A stretch of DNA of 64,000 bases from positions 96,001-160,000 of the IMG/VR virus record IMGVR_UViG_3300020048_000018. One strand, given 5' to 3'. The notes beneath the pieces were generated by a model. That model was not told where the DNA came from. It did not search any database and was given only the letters and a program-made list of their open reading frames with translations. The DNA is from a virus. Positions 2,436-60,306 of the stretch are shown here, piece by piece. Every line of letters starts with the position of its first letter. Positions within the stretch are counted from its first letter, which is position 1. Made by a program: the position numbers and the translations under genes.

Positions 2436-4463
2436 TTAAGATACGTCTGGAAGTATCTTTTCGGAATATGTAACCCAATTAATAGCATTCTTGTATTCAG
2501 AATAAGACACAGATGGAACAATAATTTGTACAACAGAACTTGGAAATACCAAGGTTCCAATATTTGTAAGTGGTGAAGACCTATTAACTATTACGGTATG
2601 CAACGCATTGCACCCAAGGAAAGCCGAGTTCCCAATAACATTAACAGACTCAGGAAGGGTTATTGTTGTTATAGCTTGACAGCTTTGGAAAGAAGACTCC
2701 CCTATTGTTAAAATACCTGAAGGAAGTATCACACTTAAAAGTGCAGTACAACTCTGGAATAATTTATCTGCAATATTTGTAATTCCTTGAGGAAGTACAA
2801 GAGAAGAAATCTTTGAGCATCCTTGGAATGCACCAGAACCAATTGTGGTTACAGTTGAGGGAACCTCTAATACTTCAAGGTTATAACAATTTTGAAAGGT
2901 GTTAGAGTTTATTGAAACTAGATTATTCGGAAGTGTTACAGAAACTAGCTGAGTACAGGAAATAAATGCTCCTGCCCCAAGAGATAATACTGTCTGAGGA
3001 ATTACCATGCTCGTTAGCATTGAACACTGACTAAACGCATTTGTCCCTATTGAGGTTAAAGATGAAGGAAGGGTAACATTTACCATTAAGCTACACCCCG
3101 AGAAAGTTCCTGACCCAATAGTTTTCACGGAAGATGGGATAGATAAAGAAGTAATCCCTGAGTTCTTAAATGCATTGTCATCTATTTTAGTTAGACTGCT
3201 TGGAAGACCAACTGTAGAAAGGGATGTACATCCAGAGAATATTCCTTCTGGTAGGATTGAAATTTTATTTGGGACAACAATATCCGTTAGGGAAGTGCAA
3301 CCATCAAAGGCACTTGTTCCTATGAAAGTAAGGGTGTATGGCAAGTCTATTGAAGTTAGTTCAGTACAACCTGCAAAAACAGAAGACCCTAATAGGTTTA
3401 ATGTTGAAGGTAACACGATTTCACTTAATACTTTACATCCTGCAAAAGCGTTTTCTCCAATGCTATTTATTTCGTCCTGAAGTACAATTGAAGAAAGGGA
3501 TTCACAACCAAAGAATAAGTTTGAAGGAATAGTGGTTATTGAGGAAGGAATACTTATTTCAACAAGGGAGGAATTAGAAAAAGAACCAGAACCAATTGAA
3601 GTAACTGTTGGAGGAATTACAATATTTGTAAGACCAGAACAATTCTCAAATACACCAGACCCTATATAAGTCACCGATTCAGGAATTATTAGTGTAGTAA
3701 TAGGAGAGTTTTTGAAAGCATTATCTTCTATACGAACAATAAAATCTGGTATCGATACAACGGTTTCAGTTCCTACAAACGAAGTTAGATTAGTTCCTGT
3801 AATAACAAAACTGGATAGGTCTGTTGTCATAGGATAAATTATATCAGCATACATAGAAAAATATTCAGAACTTTTATAAGCTTCCACGCTCTCATTTGGA
3901 ACTAAAATAACAAAGTTTGGACTACACCCAAGAAATACATCTACTCCTTGGGTAGGTGGAGATATTTGATTGTAAATTGCATAGGAAAGGGACTCACAAT
4001 TCTCAAAAGAGCTTGAACCTATTGAATTAATATTTTCCATAAACTCGATGTGAGTCAAGTTAGTACCAAAAAAGGAGTTGCTTTCAAGAGTAGTAAGGCT
4101 TTGGGGTAATTTTATTCCTGATAGTTTTGTACATCCTTCAAAAGCTCCATACCTAATTTCTAATAAACCAGAAGGAAAAATAACATCTGTAATATATTCC
4201 TTATCCTTAAACACATTTTGATATATGCTTAATACTCCATCAGGTATTATTACATAACTACTTAAGCTGTTGTAAGAAGACAATCCAGATTCATCTATAA
4301 CAAAAGTAGGTACATCCCCTTGTACTGCGATAAGTCTAATCAAAGAACTATAAGTTCTAAAAGGTAACGAGGGTGATACTTCTACCCCTTTCTCAATTAA
4401 AGCTGACCTTATCATGGCTTTTGTTTCTCTTAAATATTCAAGTTTGTTCAATATGATGCTCAT
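2436..4463 (-). CDS. BspA-type (LRR_5) leucine-rich-repeat protein, putative receptor-binding/fibre protein
   Basis: Many (L/I)xxIxIPxSVTxIGxxAFxxCxxL repeats. N-terminus LNKLEYLRETKAMIRSALIEKGV resembles a phage fibre attachment segment. Confidence 0.85.
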   Translation of the reverse strand: MSIILNKLEYLRETKAMIRSALIEKGVEVSPSLPFRTYSSLIRLIAVQGDVPTFVIDESGLSSYNSLSSYVIIPDGVLSIYQNVFKDKEYITDVIFPSGLLEIRYGAFEGCTKLSGIKLPQSLTTLESNSFFGTNLTHIEFMENINSIGSSSFENCESLSYAIYNQISPPTQGVDVFLGCSPNFVILVPNESVEAYKSSEYFSMYADIIYPMTTDLSSFVITGTNLTSFVGTETVVSIPDFIVRIEDNAFKNSPITTLIIPESVTYIGSGVFENCSGLTNIVIPPTVTSIGSGSFSNSSLVEISIPSSITTIPSNLFFGCESLSSIVLQDEINSIGENAFAGCKVLSEIVLPSTLNLLGSSVFAGCTELTSIDLPYTLTFIGTSAFDGCTSLTDIVVPNKISILPEGIFSGCTSLSTVGLPSSLTKIDDNAFKNSGITSLSIPSSVKTIGSGTFSGCSLMVNVTLPSSLTSIGTNAFSQCSMLTSMVIPQTVLSLGAGAFISCTQLVSVTLPNNLVSINSNTFQNCYNLEVLEVPSTVTTIGSGAFQGCSKISSLVLPQGITNIADKLFQSCTALLSVILPSGILTIGESSFQSCQAITTITLPESVNVIGNSAFLGCNALHTVIVNRSSPLTNIGTLVFPSSVVQIIVPSVSYSEYKNAINWVTYSEKILPDVS

Positions 4464-7067: not shown

Positions 7068-8918
7068 ATGAGTGAACTACTGAACAAAATAAATTACTTG
7101 ACTGAAACGAAAAACCTGATGAAAGCAAAATTAGGTACAACCTCTGACATCTTGAGAGACTATGTTCCTCTCATGAAATATGATGACGGAACAGCTCCAA
7201 AAGAATGGAGCGAAGCTGATTGGTTAGATGTTTATAATAGTTACCAAAGACCTGCTGATTGGTTAACAATTCCTACAATTTTGGAATCTGAACAAAAAGT
7301 AATTGGTCTCTATCCAGTTTACGACCATGACTCAAATTTCGTTGCAGTTACAATCTCAGGAAATTATTCCGTAGACTGGGGTGATGGAGTTACAGAAAAC
7401 TTCGTAGCAGGTGTGAAAGCTGAACATAGTTATGACTATGCAACTTGTGGAAATCTTTCTACATTAGGCTACAAGCAGGTATTAATTACGATTACTCCTC
7501 AAGCAACTTTTAATTTGACCTCAGTAAACTTAGGGGTTTTTCATACTTCAGCACCAAATAGCCCCAATTCATTTTTAGACATTTCTGGGAATGGAAGTTT
7601 AATTACTCTCTTTAATGTTCAAAACTTACCTATATTAAACTCTTTTAGTTTAGGATTAAATAATATTACAAACTTTTCTTATTTGTTTTATGGTTGTCCT
7701 TCTTTACAAACTATCCCACTTCTAAATACAAGTTTAGGTACAAACTTTCAATCTATGTTTTATACTTGTCTTGCACTACAAACTATTCCACTTTTTGATA
7801 CAAGTAAAGGTACAAACTTTTCTCAGATATTTAGTAATTGTACTGCCTTGCAAACGATTCCACTTCTTAATACAAGTTTAGGTACTGACTTTTCTGGTAT
7901 GTTTATTAATTGTACTTCCTTAAAAACAATTCCACTTCTCGATACAAGTAATGGTACAAACTTTTCTGCTATGTTTCAGAATTGTTATTCCTTACAAACG
8001 ATTCCCCTTCTTGATACAAGTTTAGGTACAACCTTTTCTCAGATGTTTAATATGTGTAAGTCATTACAAACGATTCCACTTATTGATACAAGTTTAGGTA
8101 CAAATTTTTCTATTATGTTTACTAGTTGTTATTCCTTACAAACGATTCCACTTCTCGATACAAGTTTAGGTACAAACTTTACTTCTATGTTTAGTAGTTG
8201 TACTTCCTTACAAACGATTCCTCTTCTTGATACAAGTTCAGGTACAAACTTTACTTATATGTTTAGTGGTTGTTCTTCATTACAAATTATCCCACTTCTC
8301 AATACAAGTTTAGGTACAGGACTTGGGGCTATGTTTAGTGATTGTACTTCCTTACAAACGATTCCGATTCTTGATACAAGTAAATGTACAAACTTTACTT
8401 CTATGTTTCAATCTTGTAAATCATTACAAACTATTCCACTTCTTGATACAAGTTTAAGTTCAAACTTTTCTTCTATGTTTTATGATTGTCCTTCCTTACA
8501 AACGATTCCACTTATTGATATAAGTTTAGGTACAGACTTCTCTTATATGTTTTATAATTGTAAATCCTTACAAAGTATTCCACTTCTCAATACAAATTTA
8601 GGTACAAACTTTAATTCTATGTTTAATGGTTGTCCTTCCTTACAAAGGATTCCACTTCTCGATACAAGTAAGGGTACGAGCTTTACGGCTATGTTTCAAG
8701 GTAGTTCTTCATTAGGGAAAGCAACTTTACTAAACACGAAAACAACAATTTCATTTGAAAGTTGTAAGTTGAGTAAATCCGCTCTTGTTGATATTTTTAA
8801 TAATTTAGCAACAGTGACTGGTCAGACTATTACTATTACAGGAAATTACGGTGCATCTTTATTAACCGCAGAGGATAGATTAATTGCAACAAATAAAGGT
8901 TGGACAATAGTTGGATAA
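7068..8918 (+). CDS. Putative receptor-binding fibre protein with DUF285/BspA-like 24-aa LRRs
   Basis: 14 repeats of CxSLQTIPLLDTSLGTNFxxMFxx. VDWGDG PKD-like motif. N-terminus is similar to that of 2436..4463. Confidence 0.75.
   Translation: MSELLNKINYLTETKNLMKAKLGTTSDILRDYVPLMKYDDGTAPKEWSEADWLDVYNSYQRPADWLTIPTILESEQKVIGLYPVYDHDSNFVAVTISGNYSVDWGDGVTENFVAGVKAEHSYDYATCGNLSTLGYKQVLITITPQATFNLTSVNLGVFHTSAPNSPNSFLDISGNGSLITLFNVQNLPILNSFSLGLNNITNFSYLFYGCPSLQTIPLLNTSLGTNFQSMFYTCLALQTIPLFDTSKGTNFSQIFSNCTALQTIPLLNTSLGTDFSGMFINCTSLKTIPLLDTSNGTNFSAMFQNCYSLQTIPLLDTSLGTTFSQMFNMCKSLQTIPLIDTSLGTNFSIMFTSCYSLQTIPLLDTSLGTNFTSMFSSCTSLQTIPLLDTSSGTNFTYMFSGCSSLQIIPLLNTSLGTGLGAMFSDCTSLQTIPILDTSKCTNFTSMFQSCKSLQTIPLLDTSLSSNFSSMFYDCPSLQTIPLIDISLGTDFSYMFYNCKSLQSIPLLNTNLGTNFNSMFNGCPSLQRIPLLDTSKGTSFTAMFQGSSSLGKATLLNTKTTISFESCKLSKSALVDIFNNLATVTGQTITITGNYGASLLTAEDRLIATNKGWTIVG
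7695..8702 (+). repeat. Tandem array of 14 x 72-bp coding repeats
   Basis: The acaagt(tta)ggtaca core recurs every 72 nt (e.g. 7728, 7800). Confidence 0.9.
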
Positions 8919-8986: not shown

Positions 8987-10381
8987 ATGGCAGCAATTTC
9001 AAAGAAAGCGAACGATTTTCTAACATCAGGTATCGCATTTAGATCGGGAGTAAACGGCGTAAATGCCAATGGTAGAATTATTTCTTCTGTTGGTGATCCT
9101 AACGGACAGACTATTGTACCTACTCCTAGTGCGGGTACGGTTTGTATAGATGCAAACACTGGTGCAATGTACCAGTATGTATCTGGTACTTCATGGAATA
9201 CCTTCACAGTTGGTGGAACGGTAACAACCCTAGACTTTAAGAACTCAGTAAGAGTAGCTTCAACTGCCAACGTTGCAACCCCTCTTACTACTGCACCTAA
9301 CACGTTGGACGGGATTTCTCTTATACAAGGGGATCGTGTTCTCTTAAAGAATCAGACACTTGGTCAAGACAATGGTATCTATGTTGTTACAACTTTAGGT
9401 ACTGGTGCCAATGGTGTATGGACTAGAGCATTAGACGCAGATTCTTCTGCTGAGTTTAATACTGGAGCATTTATTCCTGTTGAAGAAGGAACCGTAAATG
9501 CAAGTTCATTCTGGCTCTTAACTACTGTAGCCCCAATCGTTCTCGGTACTACTCCAATTGTATTCAAGAACTTTGGTACGTATGTTGCAGGTAATGGTAT
9601 TACCCTTACAGGTAATTCAATCTCTGTTACAGCTCAAGCCGCTAACGCTGTTCAAGTTACGGGATCTGGTGTTGGTTTAGTTCTTCCTGCCGTGTCGGGT
9701 TTAGCTCAATCAGCTTCTGGACTTAACGTTGTTGTTGACCCTACAACTCCAACTTTATCAATGACTGCAACTGGTCTTAAAGTACTTATTCCTACTGCAT
9801 TAACAAGTGGTTTGACTGCTACTGCCGCAGGTCTTGTGGTAGAACTTGATGAAACAACTGGTGCATTAGCTCACAGTGCTTCAGGTCTTAAAGTTGTAAC
9901 CCCTGCTGTTGAAACAAGTGGTTTAACAATCTCTGGAACCGGTATCGCAGTTACTCTTGACCCTTCGTCAGGTCTTGTACATAGTGCAACGGGTATTAAA
10001 GCTGTTGTTGATACAACCAATGGTTCTACTGCACTTGTTGGTAATGCTATTGTAGTACCGGGTCTTTCAAGAAAAACAATTGCTTCCTCAACTGCTTCTC
10101 AAATTGTGGATACTATCCCTCTTGCATCTTTCACAGGTGCTAAATGGTTAGTAAATATTAAAAATGCAACTGGTGCAAGATATCTTACTGAAATCCTCAG
10201 TGTAGGGGCAGGTCTAGGACTTGTTGATTCAACTGAGTATGGTACAGTTGTTCTCTCTGGTGCAACACCTTTTGTTGCTAATCCCGTTCTTACTGTAACC
10301 GCAGATGCAACTAATATGATTCTCACGTATACTGGTGACGCTTCAGTCGCTATCAATGTTGAAAGAACTGCATTAGCTTAA
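8987..10381 (+). CDS. Virion fibre/decoration protein
   Basis: KNSVRVASTANV...GDRVLLKNQT..DNGIYVV..WTRA.DAD..VEEGT is a common phage structural domain. Ala/Gly/Thr-rich GLxxSxxGLxV repeats. Confidence 0.75.
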   Translation: MAAISKKANDFLTSGIAFRSGVNGVNANGRIISSVGDPNGQTIVPTPSAGTVCIDANTGAMYQYVSGTSWNTFTVGGTVTTLDFKNSVRVASTANVATPLTTAPNTLDGISLIQGDRVLLKNQTLGQDNGIYVVTTLGTGANGVWTRALDADSSAEFNTGAFIPVEEGTVNASSFWLLTTVAPIVLGTTPIVFKNFGTYVAGNGITLTGNSISVTAQAANAVQVTGSGVGLVLPAVSGLAQSASGLNVVVDPTTPTLSMTATGLKVLIPTALTSGLTATAAGLVVELDETTGALAHSASGLKVVTPAVETSGLTISGTGIAVTLDPSSGLVHSATGIKAVVDTTNGSTALVGNAIVVPGLSRKTIASSTASQIVDTIPLASFTGAKWLVNIKNATGARYLTEILSVGAGLGLVDSTEYGTVVLSGATPFVANPVLTVTADATNMILTYTGDASVAINVERTALA

Positions 10382-14377: not shown

Positions 14378-14413
14378 AGTTTTGAACTTTTTCTAAAAAT
14401 GCTATATATTATA
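14378..14413 (+). promoter_or_regulatory. Sigma70-like (early) promoter TTGAAC-N17-TATATT
   Basis: TTGAAC at 14382-14387 and TATATT at 14405-14410. One of four near-identical copies. Confidence 0.8.
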
Positions 14414-31979: not shown

Positions 31980-32027
31980 GTCTAAAATTAAAGTCTGAGA
32001 TTATTCCTCAGACTTTAATATTTAAAA

Positions 32028-32063
32028 AGTTTTGAACTTTTCCAGAAATTTCTATATATTATA
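32028..32063 (+). promoter_or_regulatory. Early promoter TTGAAC-N17-TATATT
   Basis: TTGAAC at 32032-32037 and TATATT at 32055-32060, just after the terminator at 31991-32016. Confidence 0.8.
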
Positions 32064-32134: not shown

Positions 32135-32857
32135 ATGAATTTTACAAAAGTACTGCTTTTAGCAGTAGGTTTATTTTTATTTTGTTCTACAATAACCTTA
32201 AATCTTATTATGTTTTCCAAAACAATTTCACCTATCAAACTAATAAGTGATTTAGGAGAACCTCAAAAAGCTTCCATGGAGGTATCCCCTTTTATTGGTC
32301 TAATTCCTGAGGTTGATGAGGTATATTCACCTTCCTTTGATGACATATACTTGTATATAAACTCAATTAGTAAAAAAAATCCTTCTAAGAATCAGCTCTC
32401 AAGAAAACAAATTTCGGATATAATACACTCTGTTGAGAAATATTGTGTTAAGTATGGAATTAATAAACTAACTATTTTTTCAATGATTAAAGTAGAATCA
32501 AATTATATCCTCACTATCCCTTCTTGGAAGGGTTCTGAATATGGTAGAGGATTACTTCAAGTAAGTAAAATAGCATTATTAGATTTTAATAACTGGACAG
32601 GTAATGAATACACCTCAGAAGATTTATATACTATAGAAAAAAATATTGAAGTAGGAATTTGGGCTTTTAATCAAAATTATCACTATGGTGTTGAAAATGG
32701 TTTTGAGGAAGGGGCTATAGTTGCCTATAATGTCGGGGTAGGTGATTATAAGAGACATAAAAAAGATTTATTATCAAATCAAATGTTTAAGGGTTTAACT
32801 TATGAATATTCAAGTAAAGTTCAGACTCAATATCAAATATTAATTTCATCCAACTAA
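32135..32857 (+). CDS. Lytic transglycosylase (SLT domain) with N-terminal TM
   Basis: MIKVESNY (catalytic Glu), GLLQV, NIEVG, AYNVG. Confidence 0.85.
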   Translation: MNFTKVLLLAVGLFLFCSTITLNLIMFSKTISPIKLISDLGEPQKASMEVSPFIGLIPEVDEVYSPSFDDIYLYINSISKKNPSKNQLSRKQISDIIHSVEKYCVKYGINKLTIFSMIKVESNYILTIPSWKGSEYGRGLLQVSKIALLDFNNWTGNEYTSEDLYTIEKNIEVGIWAFNQNYHYGVENGFEEGAIVAYNVGVGDYKRHKKDLLSNQMFKGLTYEYSSKVQTQYQILISSN

Positions 32858-32867
32858 GGGGTTACAA

Positions 32868-33188
32868 ATGGAAAACTTCACGAATCTTTGGTCTTATCAA
32901 AATGAACAGATAATAAAATTTCAGGGTTCAATAATTTCTCTCTCAAACTTTTCAGCTATACGTCCCATAATAATAAAAAATATGGGGTATGAGGTTCCTG
33001 CAATTAAGTTTTTTGGTAAGAAAGGTATAGAGTCTCAAGTATTTAGCTATGTTGACTTCCCTGATTTTACGGGATATTCCAAGGAAGCTTTGGACAAGTC
33101 GGTGGAAAAACTGATATCAGAAGCAAATACTCAATGTGATTCAGACATCGAATGGCTTTGGGATAATTGCTTTAAGGGGGCTAAATGA
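32868..33188 (+). CDS. Hypothetical protein
   Basis: ATGA-coupled to the FliM-like gene. Confidence 0.65.
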   Translation: MENFTNLWSYQNEQIIKFQGSIISLSNFSAIRPIIIKNMGYEVPAIKFFGKKGIESQVFSYVDFPDFTGYSKEALDKSVEKLISEANTQCDSDIEWLWDNCFKGAK

Positions 33189-34378
33189 ACTCAAAAGTAA
33201 CACAAAAAGACTTAGAGGCTATCTTAGCAGGTCAATCACCTTTCTTGAAAAATAAACCTCCTATTCCTCTTTCAGATGAAGAACTTCTGGCATTGGTAGA
33301 TACAGATGAAAGTAGGGAGAAGACAAGGAATGCTAAAATTATAACCGAAGATTTTGTTCCTCCCCCACACAAGAGTACTACAGAGGTTCTCTCACAGGCT
33401 GAAGTTGATCAGCTTCTTGATGCCATCTCCTGTAGGGATGATGAATCAGATAACCTCAGAAGTGAAAAAGAAAATAAGAAACTTCGTGTTAAAATTGTAG
33501 ACTTTGGTAATTACTTGAGATACACTCAAAAAAATATGAGAAACTTATCCTCCCTTCATGACGATCTTGTTAGTCATGAAATGTATGCTTCCTTAAAAGA
33601 ACTTTATGGTTTTGATAATAATTCTCATATGCACCTTGTCAGTGTTGATCAGATGAGATTTTCAAACTTCCTTACCAGTCTTCCTTCCCCTTTCTTCATG
33701 GGAGTTGTTAAGTTTAATAAGTTTTCAAACCCTCTTATTATTGAAGCTGACTCAAATATAATCCTTCCCTTAATGAAAAAAGAAATCGTTAGTGTGATGT
33801 ATCCTACTCTTTTTGAGAAAGATGAACAGAACTTTTTCTCAAAGGGGATTTTGTTAAGAGTAATAGACTCTCTTATTTCTCAAAATAATAAAGTGTTTAA
33901 GTCCCCACCTAAGAGTGTGGAGATTATTGATAATTTTTCCAGTTTTAATACAGACCTTTTTAAGAAAACAGGGGTTTTACTTACCATTGAACTAGAAAGC
34001 CCTACTGACAAGGTAAGCGGTATGATAAATATCTGGTACTTTGAGGAATTTGTAAATGAGTTTATTAAAGCTTATGAGTCAAAAGAAATAAAAACTATTG
34101 GAGATACTGAAATGGAAATAACGTATAATAAACCTTTTGATGAGAAAGGGATTAAACTTGAAGTTCTTGCAGAACTTGGTAGATCCAAGCTAACTTTGGA
34201 TGAACTTAGGGCTGTCGGAGAAGGGTCTATAATTAAACTAAATACTGTCATGGGAGAAGTAATAAAACTTACAATTGATGGAAAGCTCTTCGCTAAAGGT
34301 GAAGTTGTTGCAATAGGTGAAAATGAAAACTTTGGTATCAGAGTAATTGAATGTATTACTAACGGTGAAACTAACTAA
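33185..34378 (+). CDS. FliM/FliN-like flagellar motor switch hybrid protein
   Basis: EVLSQAEVDQLLDAIS (FliM N-terminal motif). KIVDF...HLVSVDQMRFSNFLTSLPSP (FliM middle domain). ELGRSKLTLDEL...GEGSIIKL...GKLFAKGEVVAIGENENFGIRVIE (FliN/SPOA). Confidence 0.85.
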   Translation: MNSKVTQKDLEAILAGQSPFLKNKPPIPLSDEELLALVDTDESREKTRNAKIITEDFVPPPHKSTTEVLSQAEVDQLLDAISCRDDESDNLRSEKENKKLRVKIVDFGNYLRYTQKNMRNLSSLHDDLVSHEMYASLKELYGFDNNSHMHLVSVDQMRFSNFLTSLPSPFFMGVVKFNKFSNPLIIEADSNIILPLMKKEIVSVMYPTLFEKDEQNFFSKGILLRVIDSLISQNNKVFKSPPKSVEIIDNFSSFNTDLFKKTGVLLTIELESPTDKVSGMINIWYFEEFVNEFIKAYESKEIKTIGDTEMEITYNKPFDEKGIKLEVLAELGRSKLTLDELRAVGEGSIIKLNTVMGEVIKLTIDGKLFAKGEVVAIGENENFGIRVIECITNGETN

Positions 34379-34402: not shown

Positions 34403-34822
34403 ATGGGAAAGAATTTAGATATTGAAAAAGATTTTGGTATTGATATAGATGGTGTATATGATTTTTTTGATGACTTAATTGAAATAGAAATTGATTATTC
34501 AGGTAAACTTCCTTCCTTAAGCGACCTTCTTACAGCAGGTAAGAGAAATTGGAAGGATATACCCGTTGAAGCTTTTGAGCATTATGCTAAAACTTCACTT
34601 AAAGTTATGTCTGAAAAGCCCTCTACAAAACTTACTGAGTCAATATCTCCCTTAAAGAAAAAGACCTTTGATGAAAGCTCTATTAGAAGTGACGCAGAAC
34701 AAATTATAAAATTAAGTGAAGCTTCCCTAAAAATCAGACCTAGTGCAAGTATTGCATTAAGGTCTGAATCCGTTTATTATTGTAAAATTAATGGTGTTAA
34801 AACTGCCATTATTAAAGATTAA
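34403..34822 (+). CDS. Hypothetical late protein
   Basis: ACTAATT upstream. LTES, FDES, LSEA motifs. Confidence 0.6.
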   Translation: MGKNLDIEKDFGIDIDGVYDFFDDLIEIEIDYSGKLPSLSDLLTAGKRNWKDIPVEAFEHYAKTSLKVMSEKPSTKLTESISPLKKKTFDESSIRSDAEQIIKLSEASLKIRPSASIALRSESVYYCKINGVKTAIIKD

Positions 34823-34844
34823 ATCTCTAAAGAAGGACATAAAA

Positions 34845-35618
34845 ATGAAGGTACAATTACAAGAAGGAAAGTTGGTTAGATGCAGTAAGGGTCATAAATA
34901 CCTTACGGAAAAAGGTGATTTCGTAGAGGTTAAATCTATCGAGAATAAAAACTCTAAGCTTAAAGAAAGCTATGATGACTATATCAGTGATAAAGTGTTA
35001 CCTATGATAAAGGGTATCATGGAAGAGTTTAAAGATGGAATAATGTCAAAGTATGAGTGCTATAATTATGATGGTGAACAAGTTGAAACCACTGATGGCA
35101 GGTCATATGATGGTTTCATGAGTTCTACAGAAGGAACTGTAACATTCTGTGGATTTACTCTCCTTGACTATCTTGAAGGTTCTGGATCTTTCCCTTCTAA
35201 CGAAAAAATTAATAAAGTTATTCAAGAGAAACTTGAATACTTACATAAATCTGCAAAAGAGGATTTTATCAGTGAGAATAAAGAAGAAATAGAATCTTTA
35301 GGTCTTGAGGATTCCCAAGTAAATTATCGTGACCTTGAAGAATTAGGTCATAGAGAGCTGGCTGAAAATCTTGATGAATATGAGAGAGGTTATATCAGTG
35401 AACAACTTTCTTTTGATGTTCATGTTTATTTTAGACAAGACCGACATGATGAAAACAGCTATAATTTTTACACCTTCTCCGAATTAATTTTTGGTGATTA
35501 TGGTAGATATGGTAGTGGAACACAGGCATTTGAGGGTGAGTTCGACTTTAAGAAAGGTGAAGATATTTCTACTAAAGCAAGAGAACTAATCGAACAAGCT
35601 TTTAGTAGTTTGGAATAA
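34845..35618 (+). CDS. Acidic hypothetical protein (putative inner-head protein)
   Basis: AAGGA RBS. LQEG and LKES near the N-terminus. Confidence 0.6.
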   Translation: MKVQLQEGKLVRCSKGHKYLTEKGDFVEVKSIENKNSKLKESYDDYISDKVLPMIKGIMEEFKDGIMSKYECYNYDGEQVETTDGRSYDGFMSSTEGTVTFCGFTLLDYLEGSGSFPSNEKINKVIQEKLEYLHKSAKEDFISENKEEIESLGLEDSQVNYRDLEELGHRELAENLDEYERGYISEQLSFDVHVYFRQDRHDENSYNFYTFSELIFGDYGRYGSGTQAFEGEFDFKKGEDISTKARELIEQAFSSLE

Positions 35619-35630
35619 GGGGATATTAGC

Positions 35631-36581
35631 ATGAAGTTTATAAAGAAAGCAGGAAAGCTCAATGAAGCTTTTGAGGATGACCAATCAATTGAAGATGCAT
35701 ATAAGGATGAGTTTGAGGAAGGTGATGGCACCAATGTAGAGGAATCACATTGGGATGATGATGACCAACATATAGAAGACCATGATGATGATGATGATGA
35801 TGATGAAAAGTCAACCAAGATTAAAGCCTTAATGAAGTTTCTTGATATCTCAGGAGAAGAATATGATTCTGTAGAACAATCTTCCTACAATGATAACCTT
35901 TTCACCTATGGTAGAACTGAGTTTCTTGTATGCACTGACTCTGAGGCAGATGATGAGTTTCGTGAAAACCAAGAGTCTCTTTGGGATGATATGGGAATAG
36001 ACTCCTATAGTGAATATATGCAGAATTGGATTTTAGATTTTGCAGTAGATGAAGAATCTTTCTGGAGTGATCATAGTTCAGATAATGAAGAAGCTATAAG
36101 GGAAAGTCCAGATAGCTATTCTCAATATTTTGATATTGAAAAAATGAAAGAAGACATTATTCTTGATTTGGATGACAAAGGCTCTGACTCTAAGTATAAG
36201 GGGTCTGCTTACCTTTCAACCGACCGAGATGATTTTGATGATGAAGAGTCTTTCAAAAGTGCTATTGGTGAAGAAGTTGATGGTTTGGATGATGATGATA
36301 TTCTTTCAATAATTAAAGAGGATGATGACATTGATAATTATGCCTCTGAAGCTAATGAAAAGTATATGCGTGATCAGGGAACCCCTGCTCAGTATCTTAG
36401 GAGTTTAGGTTATGATGGTAAACAACTTGGTTCACAACTAAGTCCTTATCTTAAAATGGAAGAAATCTTCGAAGAAGTAAAATCTGCTGACGGAAGAGGA
36501 CACGCACTTGCAGGCTATGATGGTCATGAAAATGAAGTATCTTTTGAGGATGAAACCTACTATATTTACAGAATAAACTAA
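35631..36581 (+). CDS. Extremely acidic protein (putative inner-head protein or DNA mimic)
   Basis: Basic tip MKFIKKAGKLNEA followed by a D/E-rich body with a D7 run. Confidence 0.65.
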   Translation: MKFIKKAGKLNEAFEDDQSIEDAYKDEFEEGDGTNVEESHWDDDDQHIEDHDDDDDDDEKSTKIKALMKFLDISGEEYDSVEQSSYNDNLFTYGRTEFLVCTDSEADDEFRENQESLWDDMGIDSYSEYMQNWILDFAVDEESFWSDHSSDNEEAIRESPDSYSQYFDIEKMKEDIILDLDDKGSDSKYKGSAYLSTDRDDFDDEESFKSAIGEEVDGLDDDDILSIIKEDDDIDNYASEANEKYMRDQGTPAQYLRSLGYDGKQLGSQLSPYLKMEEIFEEVKSADGRGHALAGYDGHENEVSFEDETYYIYRIN

Positions 36582-36616: not shown

Positions 36617-36652
36617 AGTTTTGAACTTTTTAGATAACTCCTATATATTATA
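36617..36652 (+). promoter_or_regulatory. Early promoter TTGAAC-N17-TATATT
   Basis: TTGAAC at 36621-36626 and TATATT at 36644-36649, following the aggtgatta...taatcacct hairpin. Confidence 0.8.
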
Positions 36653-36694: not shown

Positions 36695-37477
36695 ATGAAA
36701 AACAACTATAGCGAGGGTGTTTCTAACCGATTAAGGGAGAATAGAGATACTGCAAGGTTATATGCGCTTCTTACTGGATGGGATTATTCTCATATTTACT
36801 CTATGGGGATTATAACCTCTGACAATCCTCGGGGAGAAAAGACTTCAAGTGCAGAAAACCAGAAAAAATGGTCAGAGCTTAAGGTCTATCTTTCAAGGTC
36901 AAACTTTGTATATCTTCAAGTAAAAGGGAAATATGGTAACATGGAGAATAGTGTTATTATTCAGAATGTTACCCCTCAGTTTATGAGACAATTGAGTATT
37001 AAGTACAATCAAGCGGCTTTTATTTATGGTGAAGTATATGAACATAAAGAAGAGCGAGGTATGAAGTTTGAGTATTTCGTTCAGGAAACTGAGGAAAAGT
37101 CTCTGTTTAATCCAAACTATGGAAGGAAGGAACTGGTACAAACCCCGAATGGTGTTTACCGTTTAGGTTCTACTCGATTCACCTATCTTAAATTTGATAA
37201 TCCCGATGATTATTATACGAGATTTAAAGGTTTTACCTTTCAGATACCTTTTTTCGATGATGATTATGACCCAAATAAATTAGGTGATGAAAAAGGTTTC
37301 ACCCTAAAGTCTAAAGCTTTGGAATCTATTGATAAGGAAGAACTTTTTAGTAGGATTAAAGAGCAAAAAAGAAGTCATAATAAAACTGAAAGGTCAGTAT
37401 GGGAAAACCGTGGAATGATAAAATTAATGCTAAATGGAGAATTCCAAGGCATGAAATATGCTAGAGTTTGTGAATAA
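36695..37477 (+). CDS. DUF3293-like phage protein
   Basis: GIITSDNP...EN...L...KGKYGNMENS...KYNQAAFIY. Confidence 0.6.
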   Translation: MKNNYSEGVSNRLRENRDTARLYALLTGWDYSHIYSMGIITSDNPRGEKTSSAENQKKWSELKVYLSRSNFVYLQVKGKYGNMENSVIIQNVTPQFMRQLSIKYNQAAFIYGEVYEHKEERGMKFEYFVQETEEKSLFNPNYGRKELVQTPNGVYRLGSTRFTYLKFDNPDDYYTRFKGFTFQIPFFDDDYDPNKLGDEKGFTLKSKALESIDKEELFSRIKEQKRSHNKTERSVWENRGMIKLMLNGEFQGMKYARVCE

Positions 37478-37493
37478 GGAAAAGGAAGGAAAA

Positions 37494-38246
37494 ATGGAAA
37501 AATTAAATGAAAGCAGGGAAAATGATCTATTCTTCGAGTTTTTAAACTTCGATGAAAGGGATTATTATCATATGGGAGACTCCTATGGAGAAGGTAGAAG
37601 TCTTGATACTTTTTTGGAAGATGTAAAAGATTTTTCTTGTGATCTTTACATAGTAGGTTTTGACAGTGGAAGTTATGATTTTATTCTTGCAACCGAAAGT
37701 AATTCTGAAAGAAACCCTTCGTATACCGAGAGTAAGGTTCTTGAAGATTTTTCAGAAATGTTAAGCGAATCTGAAAGATATGGTTATCAGAATCACAATG
37801 AAGAAGATGGAGAGGAATATGAAGGTGTTTCCCTTGATGTAATTACCAAATTGGACATGGGACAGTTTGTTGAAATTACTTTTGGGGAGATTGACAACCG
37901 AACATTTGAAACCGTAAAAAAGGACGTTTGGAATCTTGCAAGCCTTGAAAACGCTCTTGAGGATTCTGGGTATTACCGAGAACATAATTTCAAGACAAGC
38001 ACCAAGACTTTTGGGGTAATTGAATTTATTCAGTGGTGTGAAAAGCTTGATAATAAGTTTACTGAGAAAAGTACTATTACTCATAATGTACTTGATGATT
38101 GCCTAGAGTTTACCTTATCGGATGATTACGAAACTAAGTTTTATTCTATCGGCGCACCAGCAGGACAGTATCTTAAGCAGAAAATGTTCGAGAGGATTTT
38201 CAACTTTATTACCAAAGAAATAGAGTATTCAAGAAACAATAACTAA
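37494..38246 (+). CDS. Acidic hypothetical protein
   Basis: AAGGA RBS. KLNES near the N-terminus. Confidence 0.6.
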   Translation: MEKLNESRENDLFFEFLNFDERDYYHMGDSYGEGRSLDTFLEDVKDFSCDLYIVGFDSGSYDFILATESNSERNPSYTESKVLEDFSEMLSESERYGYQNHNEEDGEEYEGVSLDVITKLDMGQFVEITFGEIDNRTFETVKKDVWNLASLENALEDSGYYREHNFKTSTKTFGVIEFIQWCEKLDNKFTEKSTITHNVLDDCLEFTLSDDYETKFYSIGAPAGQYLKQKMFERIFNFITKEIEYSRNNN

Positions 38247-54519: not shown

Positions 54520-55440
54520 ATGAAAATATTACAAGCATGGTCGTCAGGTTTTGATTCTACCTGTCTCTTATATAAAAACTTGAGAGAGGGTAACGAAGTA
54601 TATCCAATCTACATAGACTCAAAAAGAATTGATAAAGTAAAGAGAGAATGTGAACTTAGAGCTATTAAGGAAATTACAGAAACCCTTGGTAAACAATTTA
54701 ATAATTATTATACAAAGTTATATTATCATGAAAATGTAGAGGTTTTCGTAGGATCAGAAGGAGTAGGGAACGGATATTCGTATCAACCATTTTTATGGAT
54801 AATGGGATTATTCAACCATGTAATATCCAACCCTCATATTGATTTTGACGAAGTTCATATTGGATATATTATGAACGATGACGCCCTCTCCTTTATTGAA
54901 GACCTTAAGATTTTGTGGAATCATTTGTTTAAGTTTAATAGAACTACAATCTTAGGTAATAAAAAAATACCAAGGCTTGAGTTTCCTCTTAAATATTTTT
55001 GTAAGCAAGATGTTCTAACTTCTCTTAAAGAAGCAAACTTACTTAATAGTTGTTGGACATGTGAAAACCCTGAGTTTATTAATGGGCAATTTTATCACTG
55101 TGCTACCTGTACTCCTTGTACACATCTTAAACCTTTTATTTACTTGTTGGACAAGTCCCATAAAAACAATGTTAGATTTGCTAAGTTTGAAAGAGATATC
55201 CCTAAAGATAAGAACAGTAAGTCATATGGAGAATGTGCATTAGATATTAAGATTATGACCGCACCAGAAAGAAAAATTGATAGTTATGAAACGGTAGATA
55301 AAGATATAGTTAGAGAATTGTACGCTTATGATTCCCAATTAAATCTAGGATTCTTACCTGAGGAATTATACTCGGTATTTCCTTCTGATTCAAAAAAATG
55401 TTGTGATGATGAAGGACCTCTTTTTAACAAACAACCATAA
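54520..55440 (+). CDS. QueC-like PP-loop ATPase with Zn site
   Basis: WSSGFDST PP-loop, FPL...K, SCWTC...HCATCTPC. Confidence 0.75.
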   Translation: MKILQAWSSGFDSTCLLYKNLREGNEVYPIYIDSKRIDKVKRECELRAIKEITETLGKQFNNYYTKLYYHENVEVFVGSEGVGNGYSYQPFLWIMGLFNHVISNPHIDFDEVHIGYIMNDDALSFIEDLKILWNHLFKFNRTTILGNKKIPRLEFPLKYFCKQDVLTSLKEANLLNSCWTCENPEFINGQFYHCATCTPCTHLKPFIYLLDKSHKNNVRFAKFERDIPKDKNSKSYGECALDIKIMTAPERKIDSYETVDKDIVRELYAYDSQLNLGFLPEELYSVFPSDSKKCCDDEGPLFNKQP

Positions 55441-59156: not shown

Positions 59157-59435
59157 ATGAAAGAAAATGATAAACCTAAGTTTAAGTGGGGTGTTGAAAA
59201 ACCAGTTCAAACCAATGAACCTACTTGGAAGGATTCTTGGGGCGGTATGCCAGAGTTTGTTCAAGAACAACAAAAGCCTTATTCTCAGATAATGTTTAGA
59301 TTTAATAGTGAAGAAGAACTTCAGGAGTTCGCTGTTTTGATAGGTCAACCTCTTACAAATAAAACAAAGTCTGCATGGTATCCCCAACTTGTTAGGGGGC
59401 TACATTCAGGTAAGAGGTATGTAGATGAATCCTAA
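59157..59435 (+). CDS. Small partner protein of the TET-associated glycosyltransferase
   Basis: WGGMPEFVQE...FNSEEELQEFAVLIGQPLT.KTKSAWYP. Overlaps the glycosyltransferase gene. Confidence 0.6.
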   Translation: MKENDKPKFKWGVEKPVQTNEPTWKDSWGGMPEFVQEQQKPYSQIMFRFNSEEELQEFAVLIGQPLTNKTKSAWYPQLVRGLHSGKRYVDES

Positions 59436-60306
59436 GTATCCAATCTACATTGTTTCAAAAGGTAGATGGCTTACAAGACTCACCAGTAAATCCTTAGAAA
59501 GAATGGGTGTACCCTATCACATTGTGGTTGAATCTCAAGAGTTCGAGGAATATTCCAAAGTAATTGACCCTAAGAAAATACTTATTCTCCCTAATGAATA
59601 CCTAGAAAAGTATGATACCTGCGACTCGTTAGGTAGCTCCCTTAGTAAAGGACCTGGTGCGGCACGTAATTTTTGTTTAGCACACTCAAGAAGTTTAGGT
59701 GCAAAGTATCATTGGGTTATGGATGACAACCTTGACGCATTTCATAGATTAAACAACAATCTTAAAGTTGTATTAGAATGTGGTTCTGCTTTCCTTTGCA
59801 TGGAAGACTTCGTTGAAAGATATACAAATGTTTTAATTGCAGGACCAAATTATTATTCTTTTTGTAAAACTACTGACCCTGTTCCTCCTTACACAATAAA
59901 TACCAGAATTTATTCGTGTCTTCTTATTAGGAACGACATTCCCTACGAGTGGAGAGGTAGATATAATGAGGACACTGATCTATGTTTAAGAGTTCTTAAA
60001 GATGGTTTTTGTACAATTCAATTTAATGCCTTTTTACAAGGAAAGGTAACTACACAAAGAATGTCTGGTGGAAACACTAAAGAGTTTTATAAAGAGGGTG
60101 GAACCTTGAATAAGTCTCAAATGATTGTTGATCTTCACCCTGATGTATCCTCTGTTGTCTATAGATTTAATCGTTGGCATCATCTTGTAGACTATAAGCC
60201 TTTCAAGAAAAATGTCTTGATACGCAATACGAATATACCGGTAGCTTCCCAAATAAATAATTATGGAATGAAGCTTATTTCAACAAATAAAAGGGGCAAA
60301 GATTAA
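59425..60306 (+). CDS. TET-associated/GREB1-like GT-A glycosyltransferase (DNA base glycosylation)
   Basis: YPIYIVSKGR, GPGAARN, WVMDDN, RIYSCLL, WRGRYNEDTDL, TQ...GGN. Confidence 0.85.
   Translation: MNPKYPIYIVSKGRWLTRLTSKSLERMGVPYHIVVESQEFEEYSKVIDPKKILILPNEYLEKYDTCDSLGSSLSKGPGAARNFCLAHSRSLGAKYHWVMDDNLDAFHRLNNNLKVVLECGSAFLCMEDFVERYTNVLIAGPNYYSFCKTTDPVPPYTINTRIYSCLLIRNDIPYEWRGRYNEDTDLCLRVLKDGFCTIQFNAFLQGKVTTQRMSGGNTKEFYKEGGTLNKSQMIVDLHPDVSSVVYRFNRWHHLVDYKPFKKNVLIRNTNIPVASQINNYGMKLISTNKRGKD

Follow-up and report, generated by a model that had tools for sequence, protein, structure and literature searches.

The window analysed in this work (64,000 nucleotides, positions 96,001 to 160,000 of the IMG/VR record IMGVR_UViG_3300020048_000018) belongs to a 178-kb record from an aquatic metagenome, estimated to be ~69% complete, and contains a phage-borne gene (33185..34378, + strand, in window coordinates) encoding a protein of 397 aa that joins parts of the flagellar switch proteins FliM and FliN in a single chain. 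This protein, referred to as the hybrid, may well be a phage-made mimic of a C-ring subunit in which two interaction modules have been kept, i.e., the CheY-docking peptide of FliM and a FliN-type SPOA domain, and one, the GGxG loop by which FliM contacts FliG, has been lost. Judging from the sequence, there is about an even chance that it acts as a decoy or as a non-coupling C-ring subunit capturing phosphorylated CheY (CheY-P). The gene was characterised with Pfam, NCBIfam and locally built profiles, an AlphaFold model and a fold search.

The open reading frame (ORF) is intact, and its translation contains every string quoted in an earlier note on this DNA, made from the letters alone, in which the gene had been proposed to encode a FliM-FliN hybrid with CheY-binding motifs. 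A Shine-Dalgarno sequence (AAGGGGG) lies 5 nt upstream of the start codon, which overlaps the preceding ORF via ATGA; since both features back this start, the 66-residue extension preceding the canonical docking motif is probably translated. The profile searches recommended in the earlier note gave matches above the cut-offs for Pfam FliM (PF02154; residues 106-283, 42.7 bits, cut-off 27) and Pfam FliMN_C (PF01052; residues 322-391, 54.2 bits, cut-off 23.8), the latter in a single stretch, and no match to Pfam CheC or CheX. The fliM equivalog TIGR01397 was aligned with residues 67-371 at a score (82.5 bits) far under its cut-off of 219.6; the fliN model TIGR02480 reached 53 bits, against a cut-off of 84, at the C-terminus only, and the alignment with NF005995 (FliY) is also confined to the C-terminus of the hybrid. 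No PHROGs family was matched by the hybrid protein.

The middle domain (33500..34033, +; residues 106-283) has the fold of FliM. The AlphaFold model of the hybrid has a predicted local distance difference test (pLDDT) value of 76, rising to 85-95 in the middle domain, and Foldseek superposed this domain on the middle domain of Helicobacter pylori FliM (FliM_M, 4gc8) with a template modelling (TM) score of 0.83 and a root-mean-square deviation of 3.2. The FliM score is higher than those of FliY (0.75) and CheC (0.63-0.65), and the whole chain matches Salmonella FliM with E values from 2e-15 to 3e-12. No viral structure like the hybrid model was retrieved by a fold search in BFVD. An in-frame ATG at position 34112 (Met310), with GGAG 8 nt upstream, could give a free SPOA module of 88 aa, which recalls the alternative translation of SctQ/Spa33; taken alone, it is too weak for an internal start to be claimed.

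Since canonical FliM also ends in a SPOA domain, the type of the C-terminal domain of the hybrid (34148..34363, +; residues 322-393) was tested directly. To this end, 77 spirochaete FliMs and 74 downstream FliY/FliN proteins were collected from 80 genome loci, and separate profiles of their C-termini were built. The C-terminal domain of the hybrid scored 54.3 bits on the FliN/FliY profile vs. 13.5 bits on the FliM_C profile; the control P0091, which is a canonical FliM, reached 70 bits on the FliM_C profile and had no match on the FliN one. Each of the two profiles marks one significant stretch in the hybrid, in both cases at residues 323-393. Among solved structures, the best sequence match is Thermotoga maritima FliN (49 bits), and the fold search with the C-terminus retrieved the same protein with 42-43% identity and a TM score of ~0.8. 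The SPOA domain is therefore of the FliN type (SpoA2). Because the stretch from the end of the middle domain to the start of the SPOA domain measures only ~40 residues, FliM's own SpoA1 is missing, and the hybrid corresponds, in the nomenclature of McDowell et al. (PMC4832279), to FliM(N+M) followed immediately by a SpoA2. The proposal of a FliM-FliN hybrid is thus borne out, with the N-terminal peptide and middle domain coming from FliM and the SPOA domain being of the FliN type.

The best conserved part of the protein is a predicted CheY-P docking peptide (33383..33430, +; residues 67-82), of a near-canonical LSQxEIDxLL type, which scored 29.5 bits (independent E value 3e-11) on a profile of the N-terminal peptides of cellular spirochaete FliMs; it begins at residue 67, i.e., at nucleotide 33383, exactly where the earlier note had placed it. 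The extension upstream of it (33197..33298, +) carries two degenerate copies of the motif, at residues 5-14 and 29-38. When the whole protein was scanned with a 12-residue profile built from 110 diverse motifs of the family, the top three windows were those at positions 68 (29.3), 28 (7.6), and 4 (2.7), which are precisely the three sites that had been picked out in the earlier note, the upstream pair being degenerate. Shuffling of residues 1-64 gave P = 0.003 and 1e-4 for the upstream sites at 28 and 4, respectively, and the AlphaFold model places helices at residues 7-14, 31-38, and 71-86, that is, at all three motif sites. On these scores, the two upstream copies are weak, yet above chance. 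Clear tandem copies of the docking motif are present in the relatives P0002, P0005, P0006, P0145, and P0160.

What the hybrid lacks is as distinctive as what it has kept. The contact between FliM and FliG involves the GGXG motif of FliM_M and the EHPQR motif of FliG_M (PMC6700473). In a profile alignment, GGxG was found in all the 29 cellular FliMs and in 12 of the 13 canonical metagenomic ones, and the hybrid has neither GGxG nor 'GG'. Among 78 fusion-type relatives, 18 have GGxG, 20 have 'GG' only, and 40 have neither. The phosphatase motif of CheC/FliY (D/S-x3-E-x2-N-x22-P) has no match anywhere in the hybrid, so that bound CheY-P would not be turned over by it.

The distribution of sequence identity along the chain is also uneven. 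The N-terminal peptide of the hybrid is 70-82% identical to those of cellular spirochaete FliMs, and its SPOA domain is 44-47% identical to the C-termini of spirochaete FliY vs. 24-30% for those of FliM; the middle domain is just 23-27% identical to that of cellular spirochaete FliMs. When cellular FliMs are compared with one another, conservation is highest in this domain (84% between Treponema and Salinispira, and ~60% with Sporomusaceae). Since the identities are high in the docking peptide and in the SPOA domain and low in the middle domain, the constraint has shifted from the latter to the two binding modules.

When 1.84 billion cluster representatives were searched exhaustively with HMMER, the hybrid protein itself was the sole match at E <= 1e-30, and 88 proteins were retrieved at E <= 1e-10. 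About 100 of the 150 top matches (clusters at 50% identity) are proteins composed of the FliM N-terminal and middle parts plus a FliN-type SPOA domain. The hybrid is the most diverged member of this large, unpublished set of FliM-FliN fusions, which lie outside flagellar operons: the 11 genomic neighbourhoods of fusion proteins that were examined include no such operon. Besides the 178-kb phage of this window, these contexts are a 33-kb IMG/VR contig (L007); a 306-kb phage that is complete, has terminal repeats, and shares the capsid type at 50% identity (L009); a 174-kb contig in which FliG immediately precedes the fusion gene and which also encodes a receiver, CheX, primase, and RecA (P0002); small, unannotated phage-like ORFs (P0013); unannotated ORFs (P0092); a 74-kb contig of unannotated ORFs (P0120); the vicinity of a phage-type topoisomerase II, which the gene adjoins (P0110); T4 RNA-ligase/polynucleotide kinase and restriction-modification genes (P0160); an island with a leucine-rich repeat (LRR)-AAA gene and a type I restriction-modification system (P0098); and ordinary chromosomal genes (P0145). 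The fusion family is mostly, not exclusively, phage-borne, and homologues on other phage contigs, which the earlier note had suggested looking for, do exist, as in L007, L009, and the contig of P0002.

Some of these loci deserve a closer description. In the large phage-like contig of P0002 and in L001, FliG is located directly 5' of a FliM-FliN fusion whose docking peptide is doubled, and a single-domain CheY-like receiver and CheX are found ~5 kb upstream, beside the primase and RecA. The L008 contig harbors near-canonical, separate fliM, fliN, and fliG genes. In the complete 306-kb phage, the FliM-type gene (L009:9998-11136) consists of two overlapping ORFs, its reading frame being interrupted by a one-base slip in a (CT) repeat (ACCTCTCTCTCC); the second frame continues the family consensus, and the interruption could be due to a sequencing error, a recent frameshift, or slippage. 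The fusion P0145 (L093:735-2108), which has two strong docking motifs, lies among MatE, proline biosynthesis, and HrpB genes, and represents a cellular orphan paralogue with no flagellar genes around it.

The analysis of the phylogenetic trees revealed that the canonical FliMs form one tight clade (Shimodaira-Hasegawa-like approximate likelihood ratio test, 97), with the fusions placed outside it on long branches. No branch of the family is longer than that of the hybrid, which measures 2.4-3.5 substitutions per site and has no resolved sister group; on these grounds, the attempt to name a host or donor from the phylogeny was rejected. A link with spirochaetes, with which the earlier note had suggested a comparison, is not established: the source is an aquatic metagenome, the tree names no donor, and the top spirochaete matches, at 22-27% identity, come from search patterns biased towards spirochaetes. 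The statement that no standard phage gene of this type is known stands for the catalogued phages and the literature, since tblastn against 50,697 phage records gave SPOA-level matches only, one of them in PhiMa05, and nothing relevant on a phage FliM, a jumbo-phage switch protein, or a viral fliM was found in the literature searched. It does not stand for metagenomes, where the gene belongs to a large family recurring in huge phages.

The viral nature of the contig is also supported by its other genes. No capsid, terminase, portal, sheath, or baseplate gene was detected by Pfam probes in this incomplete 178-kb record, which is very remote from catalogued phages. However, a 561-aa ORF (G000:C1:161521-163206; L096:1521-3206) has more than 550 homologues at ~50% identity, many of them on contigs of 260-440 kb, and about 20 of the 120 listed homologues carry Pfam Gp23 (PF07068); on this homology, its product is a predicted gp23-type major capsid protein. 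This protein is so diverged that Pfam and PHROGs scans, the direct Pfam Gp23 probe included, and tblastn against the 50,697 phages were blank; its connection with a large clade of phages of 260-440 kb was made through its metagenomic homologues. Also present in the genome are genes for T4-type topoisomerase II subunits (565 and 404 bits), for a phage GroEL (412 bits), for a hydroxymethylcytosine (HMC) glucosyltransferase and a DnaB-like helicase, and for HNH homing endonucleases. The capsid protein and the topoisomerase, together with a 26-copy promoter and a GC content matching that of the phage (both described below), confirm that the hybrid is phage-encoded. No FliG (FliG_C), CheX, PilZ, or MCPsignal domain was detected in the 178 kb available.

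The hybrid gene is the third of a promoter-bounded unit starting at 32032, which comprises a lytic transglycosylase gene (SLT), ORF106, the hybrid gene, and three ORFs without assigned function. The unit promoter (32032..32060, +), sigma-70-like and of the form TTGAACTTTT-N-CTATATATT, is one of 26 near-identical copies in the genome. It follows a hairpin (31990..32016, +), read from the intergenic sequence, with a 10-bp stem (AAAGTCTGAG/CTCAGACTTT) after the dUTPase gene; this is a possible terminator closing the upstream unit, which was missed by the terminator consensus scan because its T-tail is weak. The first gene of the unit (32135..32857, +) encodes a membrane-anchored lytic transglycosylase (Pfam SLT, 30.4 bits), with a hydrophobic N-terminus and a VES catalytic motif. 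It is followed by ORF106 (32868..33188, +), which has no family match and is coupled to the hybrid gene by the ATGA overlap; an Atlas structural search disclosed weak PH-like structural neighbours for it and gave no usable lead for either ORF106 or ORF139. The latter is one of the three co-directional ORFs completing the unit (34403..36581, +; 139, 275, and 316 aa, the last being very acidic), none of which belongs to a significant family. According to the promoter scan, the next copy of the TTGAACTTTT-type promoter (36621..36649, +) heads the following unit.

Of the 26 copies of the promoter (TTGAACTTTT...CTATATAT) in the 178-kb genome, nearly all are intergenic and lie 19-50 nt 5' of a gene, with six matches in the window vs. 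1.5 expected; conserved sigma-70-like copies of the form TTGAACTTTT-N-CCTATATAT are found in the window at 14382, 32032, 36621, and 46795. The promoter probably represents one temporal class of phage promoters. No fli or mot genes flank the hybrid, its neighbours being the SLT gene and ORFs without family, so that the absence of flanking fli genes recorded in the earlier note is borne out by the Pfam and ORF survey; the immediate neighbours show no synteny with other FliM-bearing loci. The GC content of the hybrid gene (0.34; 0.28 at third codon positions) is that of the phage background, and two contigs from sister samples span the upstream junction with zero differences. The absence of flanking flagellar genes, the matching GC content, the phage promoter, and the bridging of the junction argue strongly against the idea, raised in the earlier note as an objection, that the contig is a chimera with host flagellar DNA.

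Other features of the genome are worth recording. A tRNA-Pro(TGG) gene (37578-37662) lies within the listed ORF 37458-38246 (262 aa, no family match), which therefore may be spurious or shorter. Outside the window, at G000:C1:66362-67552 (L005:1468-2658), a response regulator of 396 aa with a receiver and two PAS-like regions is encoded; it has the usual acidic pocket and phospho-acceptor Asp, its receiver domain is the only one of the record, and no kinase was seen. Three large BspA-type LRR/DUF285 repeat proteins are encoded at 2436-4463 (-) and 7068-8918 (+) of the window and at L097:3037-4965 (-), and next to them, at 8987-10381, there is a protein with tail-fibre or head-decoration-like domains; all of these may be host-recognition proteins. 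A QueC-like gene (54520-55440) and a gene similar to beta-glucosyl-HMC alpha-glucosyltransferases (59425-60306) suggest that the phage DNA is hypermodified.

How might the hybrid act on an infected cell? SPOA domains form intertwined dimers in all known cases, FliM(SpoA1) pairing with FliN(SpoA2), and a FliM-FliN fusion in Salmonella gave fragmented rings (PMC4832279). Since a SPOA domain is known only as a dimer and the hybrid has a single SpoA2, it would have to pair with itself or with host FliM, FliN, or FliY. Expressed from a sigma-70-like phage promoter, the hybrid would capture CheY-P via its docking peptide, take up FliN/FliY-type positions at the bottom of the host C-ring, or do both, and would not relay the signal to FliG; chemotactic signalling would thus be uncoupled from motor switching, and ring assembly might also be disturbed. 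The hybrid might act either inside the ring or as a free dimer. Like CheY-P binding, the effects on motility, on flagellar assembly or export, and on the exclusion of other phages that had been put forward in the earlier note are inferences. A decoy or non-coupling subunit appears to be the most economical reading because the docking peptide is conserved and both the phosphatase motif and GGxG are absent, and the loss of GGxG and SpoA1 fits the poison or sponge envisaged in the earlier note better than a working FliM.

Several points weigh against this reading. Both upstream motif copies are degenerate and gained no support from a narrower, 18-residue profile of the N-terminal peptide. The absence of GGxG is an indirect pointer to a loss of FliG binding. 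Met356 and Ala376 of the hybrid differ, in the alignment, from two residues of the FliN patch cited for CheY-P/FliH binding (PMC6700473), so that partner binding may be altered. No relative of the hybrid protein exceeds 50% identity, and the contigs of the three samples carry no variants from which purifying selection could be gauged. Lastly, some related phages carry FliG beside a fuller FliM-FliN protein, together with CheY and CheX, which hints at a constructive, rather than destructive, role of the family.

The last point leads to a different explanation, namely that a phage-encoded FliM/FliN-like subunit is a working replacement part, keeping the host motor running or responsive while host protein synthesis is shut down and C-ring subunits turn over, in a way that can be likened to auxiliary metabolic genes. 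The related contigs with FliG and FliM-FliN (one also with CheY and CheX), the near-canonical fliM, fliN, and fliG of L008, and the conservation of the docking peptide and SPOA domain speak for it; we nevertheless regard it as unlikely for this protein, which has neither GGxG nor SpoA1, has the most diverged middle domain of the family according to its branch of 2.4-3.5 substitutions per site, and is not accompanied by FliG in the 178 kb available. The target might instead be flagellar export, if the FliN-type SPOA domain bound FliH, at which the export ATPase complex docks, and thereby blocked flagellar assembly or diverted the export gate. FliN residues V111-V113 are reportedly needed for FliH binding (PMC6700473), and the equivalent patch in the alignment of the hybrid (Leu331, Val374, Val375, and Ala376) is still hydrophobic; the sharing of a transcription unit with a membrane-anchored lytic transglycosylase would also agree with this. 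Yet phages often carry SLT genes for other reasons, the neighbourhood is not conserved at related loci, and an action on export would leave unexplained the retention of a FliM middle domain and of a near-perfect peptide for CheY docking, which makes this explanation a rather improbable one.

Similarly small is the probability that motor parts have been re-used for a phage function unrelated to motility, e.g., as a scaffold or regulator: the extreme divergence of the hybrid and the existence of an orphan cellular paralogue away from flagellar genes (P0145) would fit such a re-use, whereas the best conserved part of the protein is the most chemotaxis-specific one, i.e., the CheY docking peptide. 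Finally, the gene might be a decaying passenger, or the contig might be not a phage or a chimera with host flagellar DNA. The negative Pfam probes for structural proteins, the incompleteness of the record, and the case of PhiMa05, the sole catalogued 'phage' with fliM, which has been argued to be a bacterial fragment, could be quoted in its favour. We consider it very improbable in view of the capsid-type ORF with its more than 550 homologues (many with Pfam Gp23) on 260-440-kb contigs, of the complete 306-kb phage in which this capsid type (50% identity) coexists with a FliM-type gene, and of the topoisomerase II, GroEL, HMC glucosyltransferase, and homing endonucleases; moreover, the lack of flanking fli/mot genes, the phage promoter, and the matching GC content argue for integration, sister-sample contigs span the upstream junction identically, the ORF is intact, and its conservation is domain-specific.

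Flagella are known to serve phages as receptors, and changes in host behaviour caused by phages are known as well. A phage-encoded flagellar switch protein was found neither in the literature searched nor among catalogued viral protein structures, and its presence in huge phages is a context undescribed in that literature. More tentatively, and with somewhat less than even confidence, huge phages of motile bacteria might carry widespread, undescribed mimics of the flagellar rotor, of which the hybrid would be a reduced form, i.e., an array of docking peptides on a FliN-type dimerisation domain serving as a CheY-P sink or a non-coupling ring subunit. If this reading is true, a virus would control whether and how the infected cell steers, and the hybrid would be the first viral mimic of a flagellar switch component. 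Should the hybrid bind CheY-P and host SPOA partners without FliG, it would provide a natural dominant-negative tool splitting signal capture, ring anchoring, and torque coupling, and would imply a direct viral manipulation of bacterial taxis at the motor. The fusion family, in which the FliG loop has been lost and the docking peptide multiplied more than once, offers a comparative set for the structure-function relationships of the C-ring, and would also be useful in phage ecology for asking whether infected cells stop, run, or lose chemotaxis.

The comparison with known systems helps to define the hybrid. The only fliM annotation in the 50,697 catalogued phage records is that of PhiMa05/MaAM05 (MW495066), and it concerns a canonical fliM that belongs to a motA-motB-fliL-fliM-fliY cluster surrounded by housekeeping genes; at MW495066.1:107501-113713 (L095), fliM is followed by a FliY-like gene, among ompA, fabI, and engB. 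A 2026 comment in ISME J argued that the 'Microcystis phage MaAM05' record is a bacterial fragment, and as a parallel case it was rejected, the gene being canonical and placed in a flagellar cluster of a record that is probably bacterial. With canonical FliM (TIGR01397/PF02154; the fliM-fliY operons of Treponema and Spirochaetaceae; Salmonella 8UMD and 9N49), the hybrid shares the N-terminal docking peptide and the middle fold, at 22-27% identity; it differs in lacking GGxG and SpoA1, in the FliN-type SPOA domain taking the place of the latter, in the 66-aa extension with extra motif copies, and in being phage-borne, outside a flagellar operon. With FliN (TIGR02480/PF01052), it has the SpoA2-type domain in common; however, FliN is small and consists of a disordered N-terminus and the SPOA domain only, whereas the hybrid, with its 397 aa, also has the N-terminal peptide and middle domain of FliM. 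The order of parts is the same as that of FliY (Bacillus, Thermotoga, and spirochaetes; PDB 4HYN; NF005995), i.e., a CheY-docking N-terminal peptide, a middle domain of CheC/FliM fold, and a FliN-type SPOA domain; unlike in FliY, the middle domain is FliM-like rather than CheC-like (TM 0.83 vs. 0.75) and the CheC-type phosphatase motif is absent.

FliM-like and FliN-like parts are also combined in one chain in the SpoA1-SpoA2 fusions SctQ/Spa33 and in the engineered Salmonella FliM-FliN fusion (PDB 4YXB; PMC4832279). Compared with SctQ/Spa33, the hybrid has a single SPOA domain, of the SpoA2 type, and a linker of ~40 residues, and for this reason it cannot form an intramolecular pseudodimer; its relatives of 444-472 aa (P0002-P0012) have a weak SpoA1 followed by SpoA2. 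The closest likeness in architecture is with the FliM-FliN fusions of L007, L009, and the contig of P0002, in which the loss of GGxG is frequent and tandem motifs are present in some cases, and whose contigs have the gp23-type capsid, GroEL, and topoisomerase II in common with the phage analysed here, at 30-50% identity. Within this group, the hybrid stands apart as the most diverged member, coming from an aquatic rather than a gut sample, without FliG, CheY, and CheX, and with three copies of the docking motif, two of which are degenerate.

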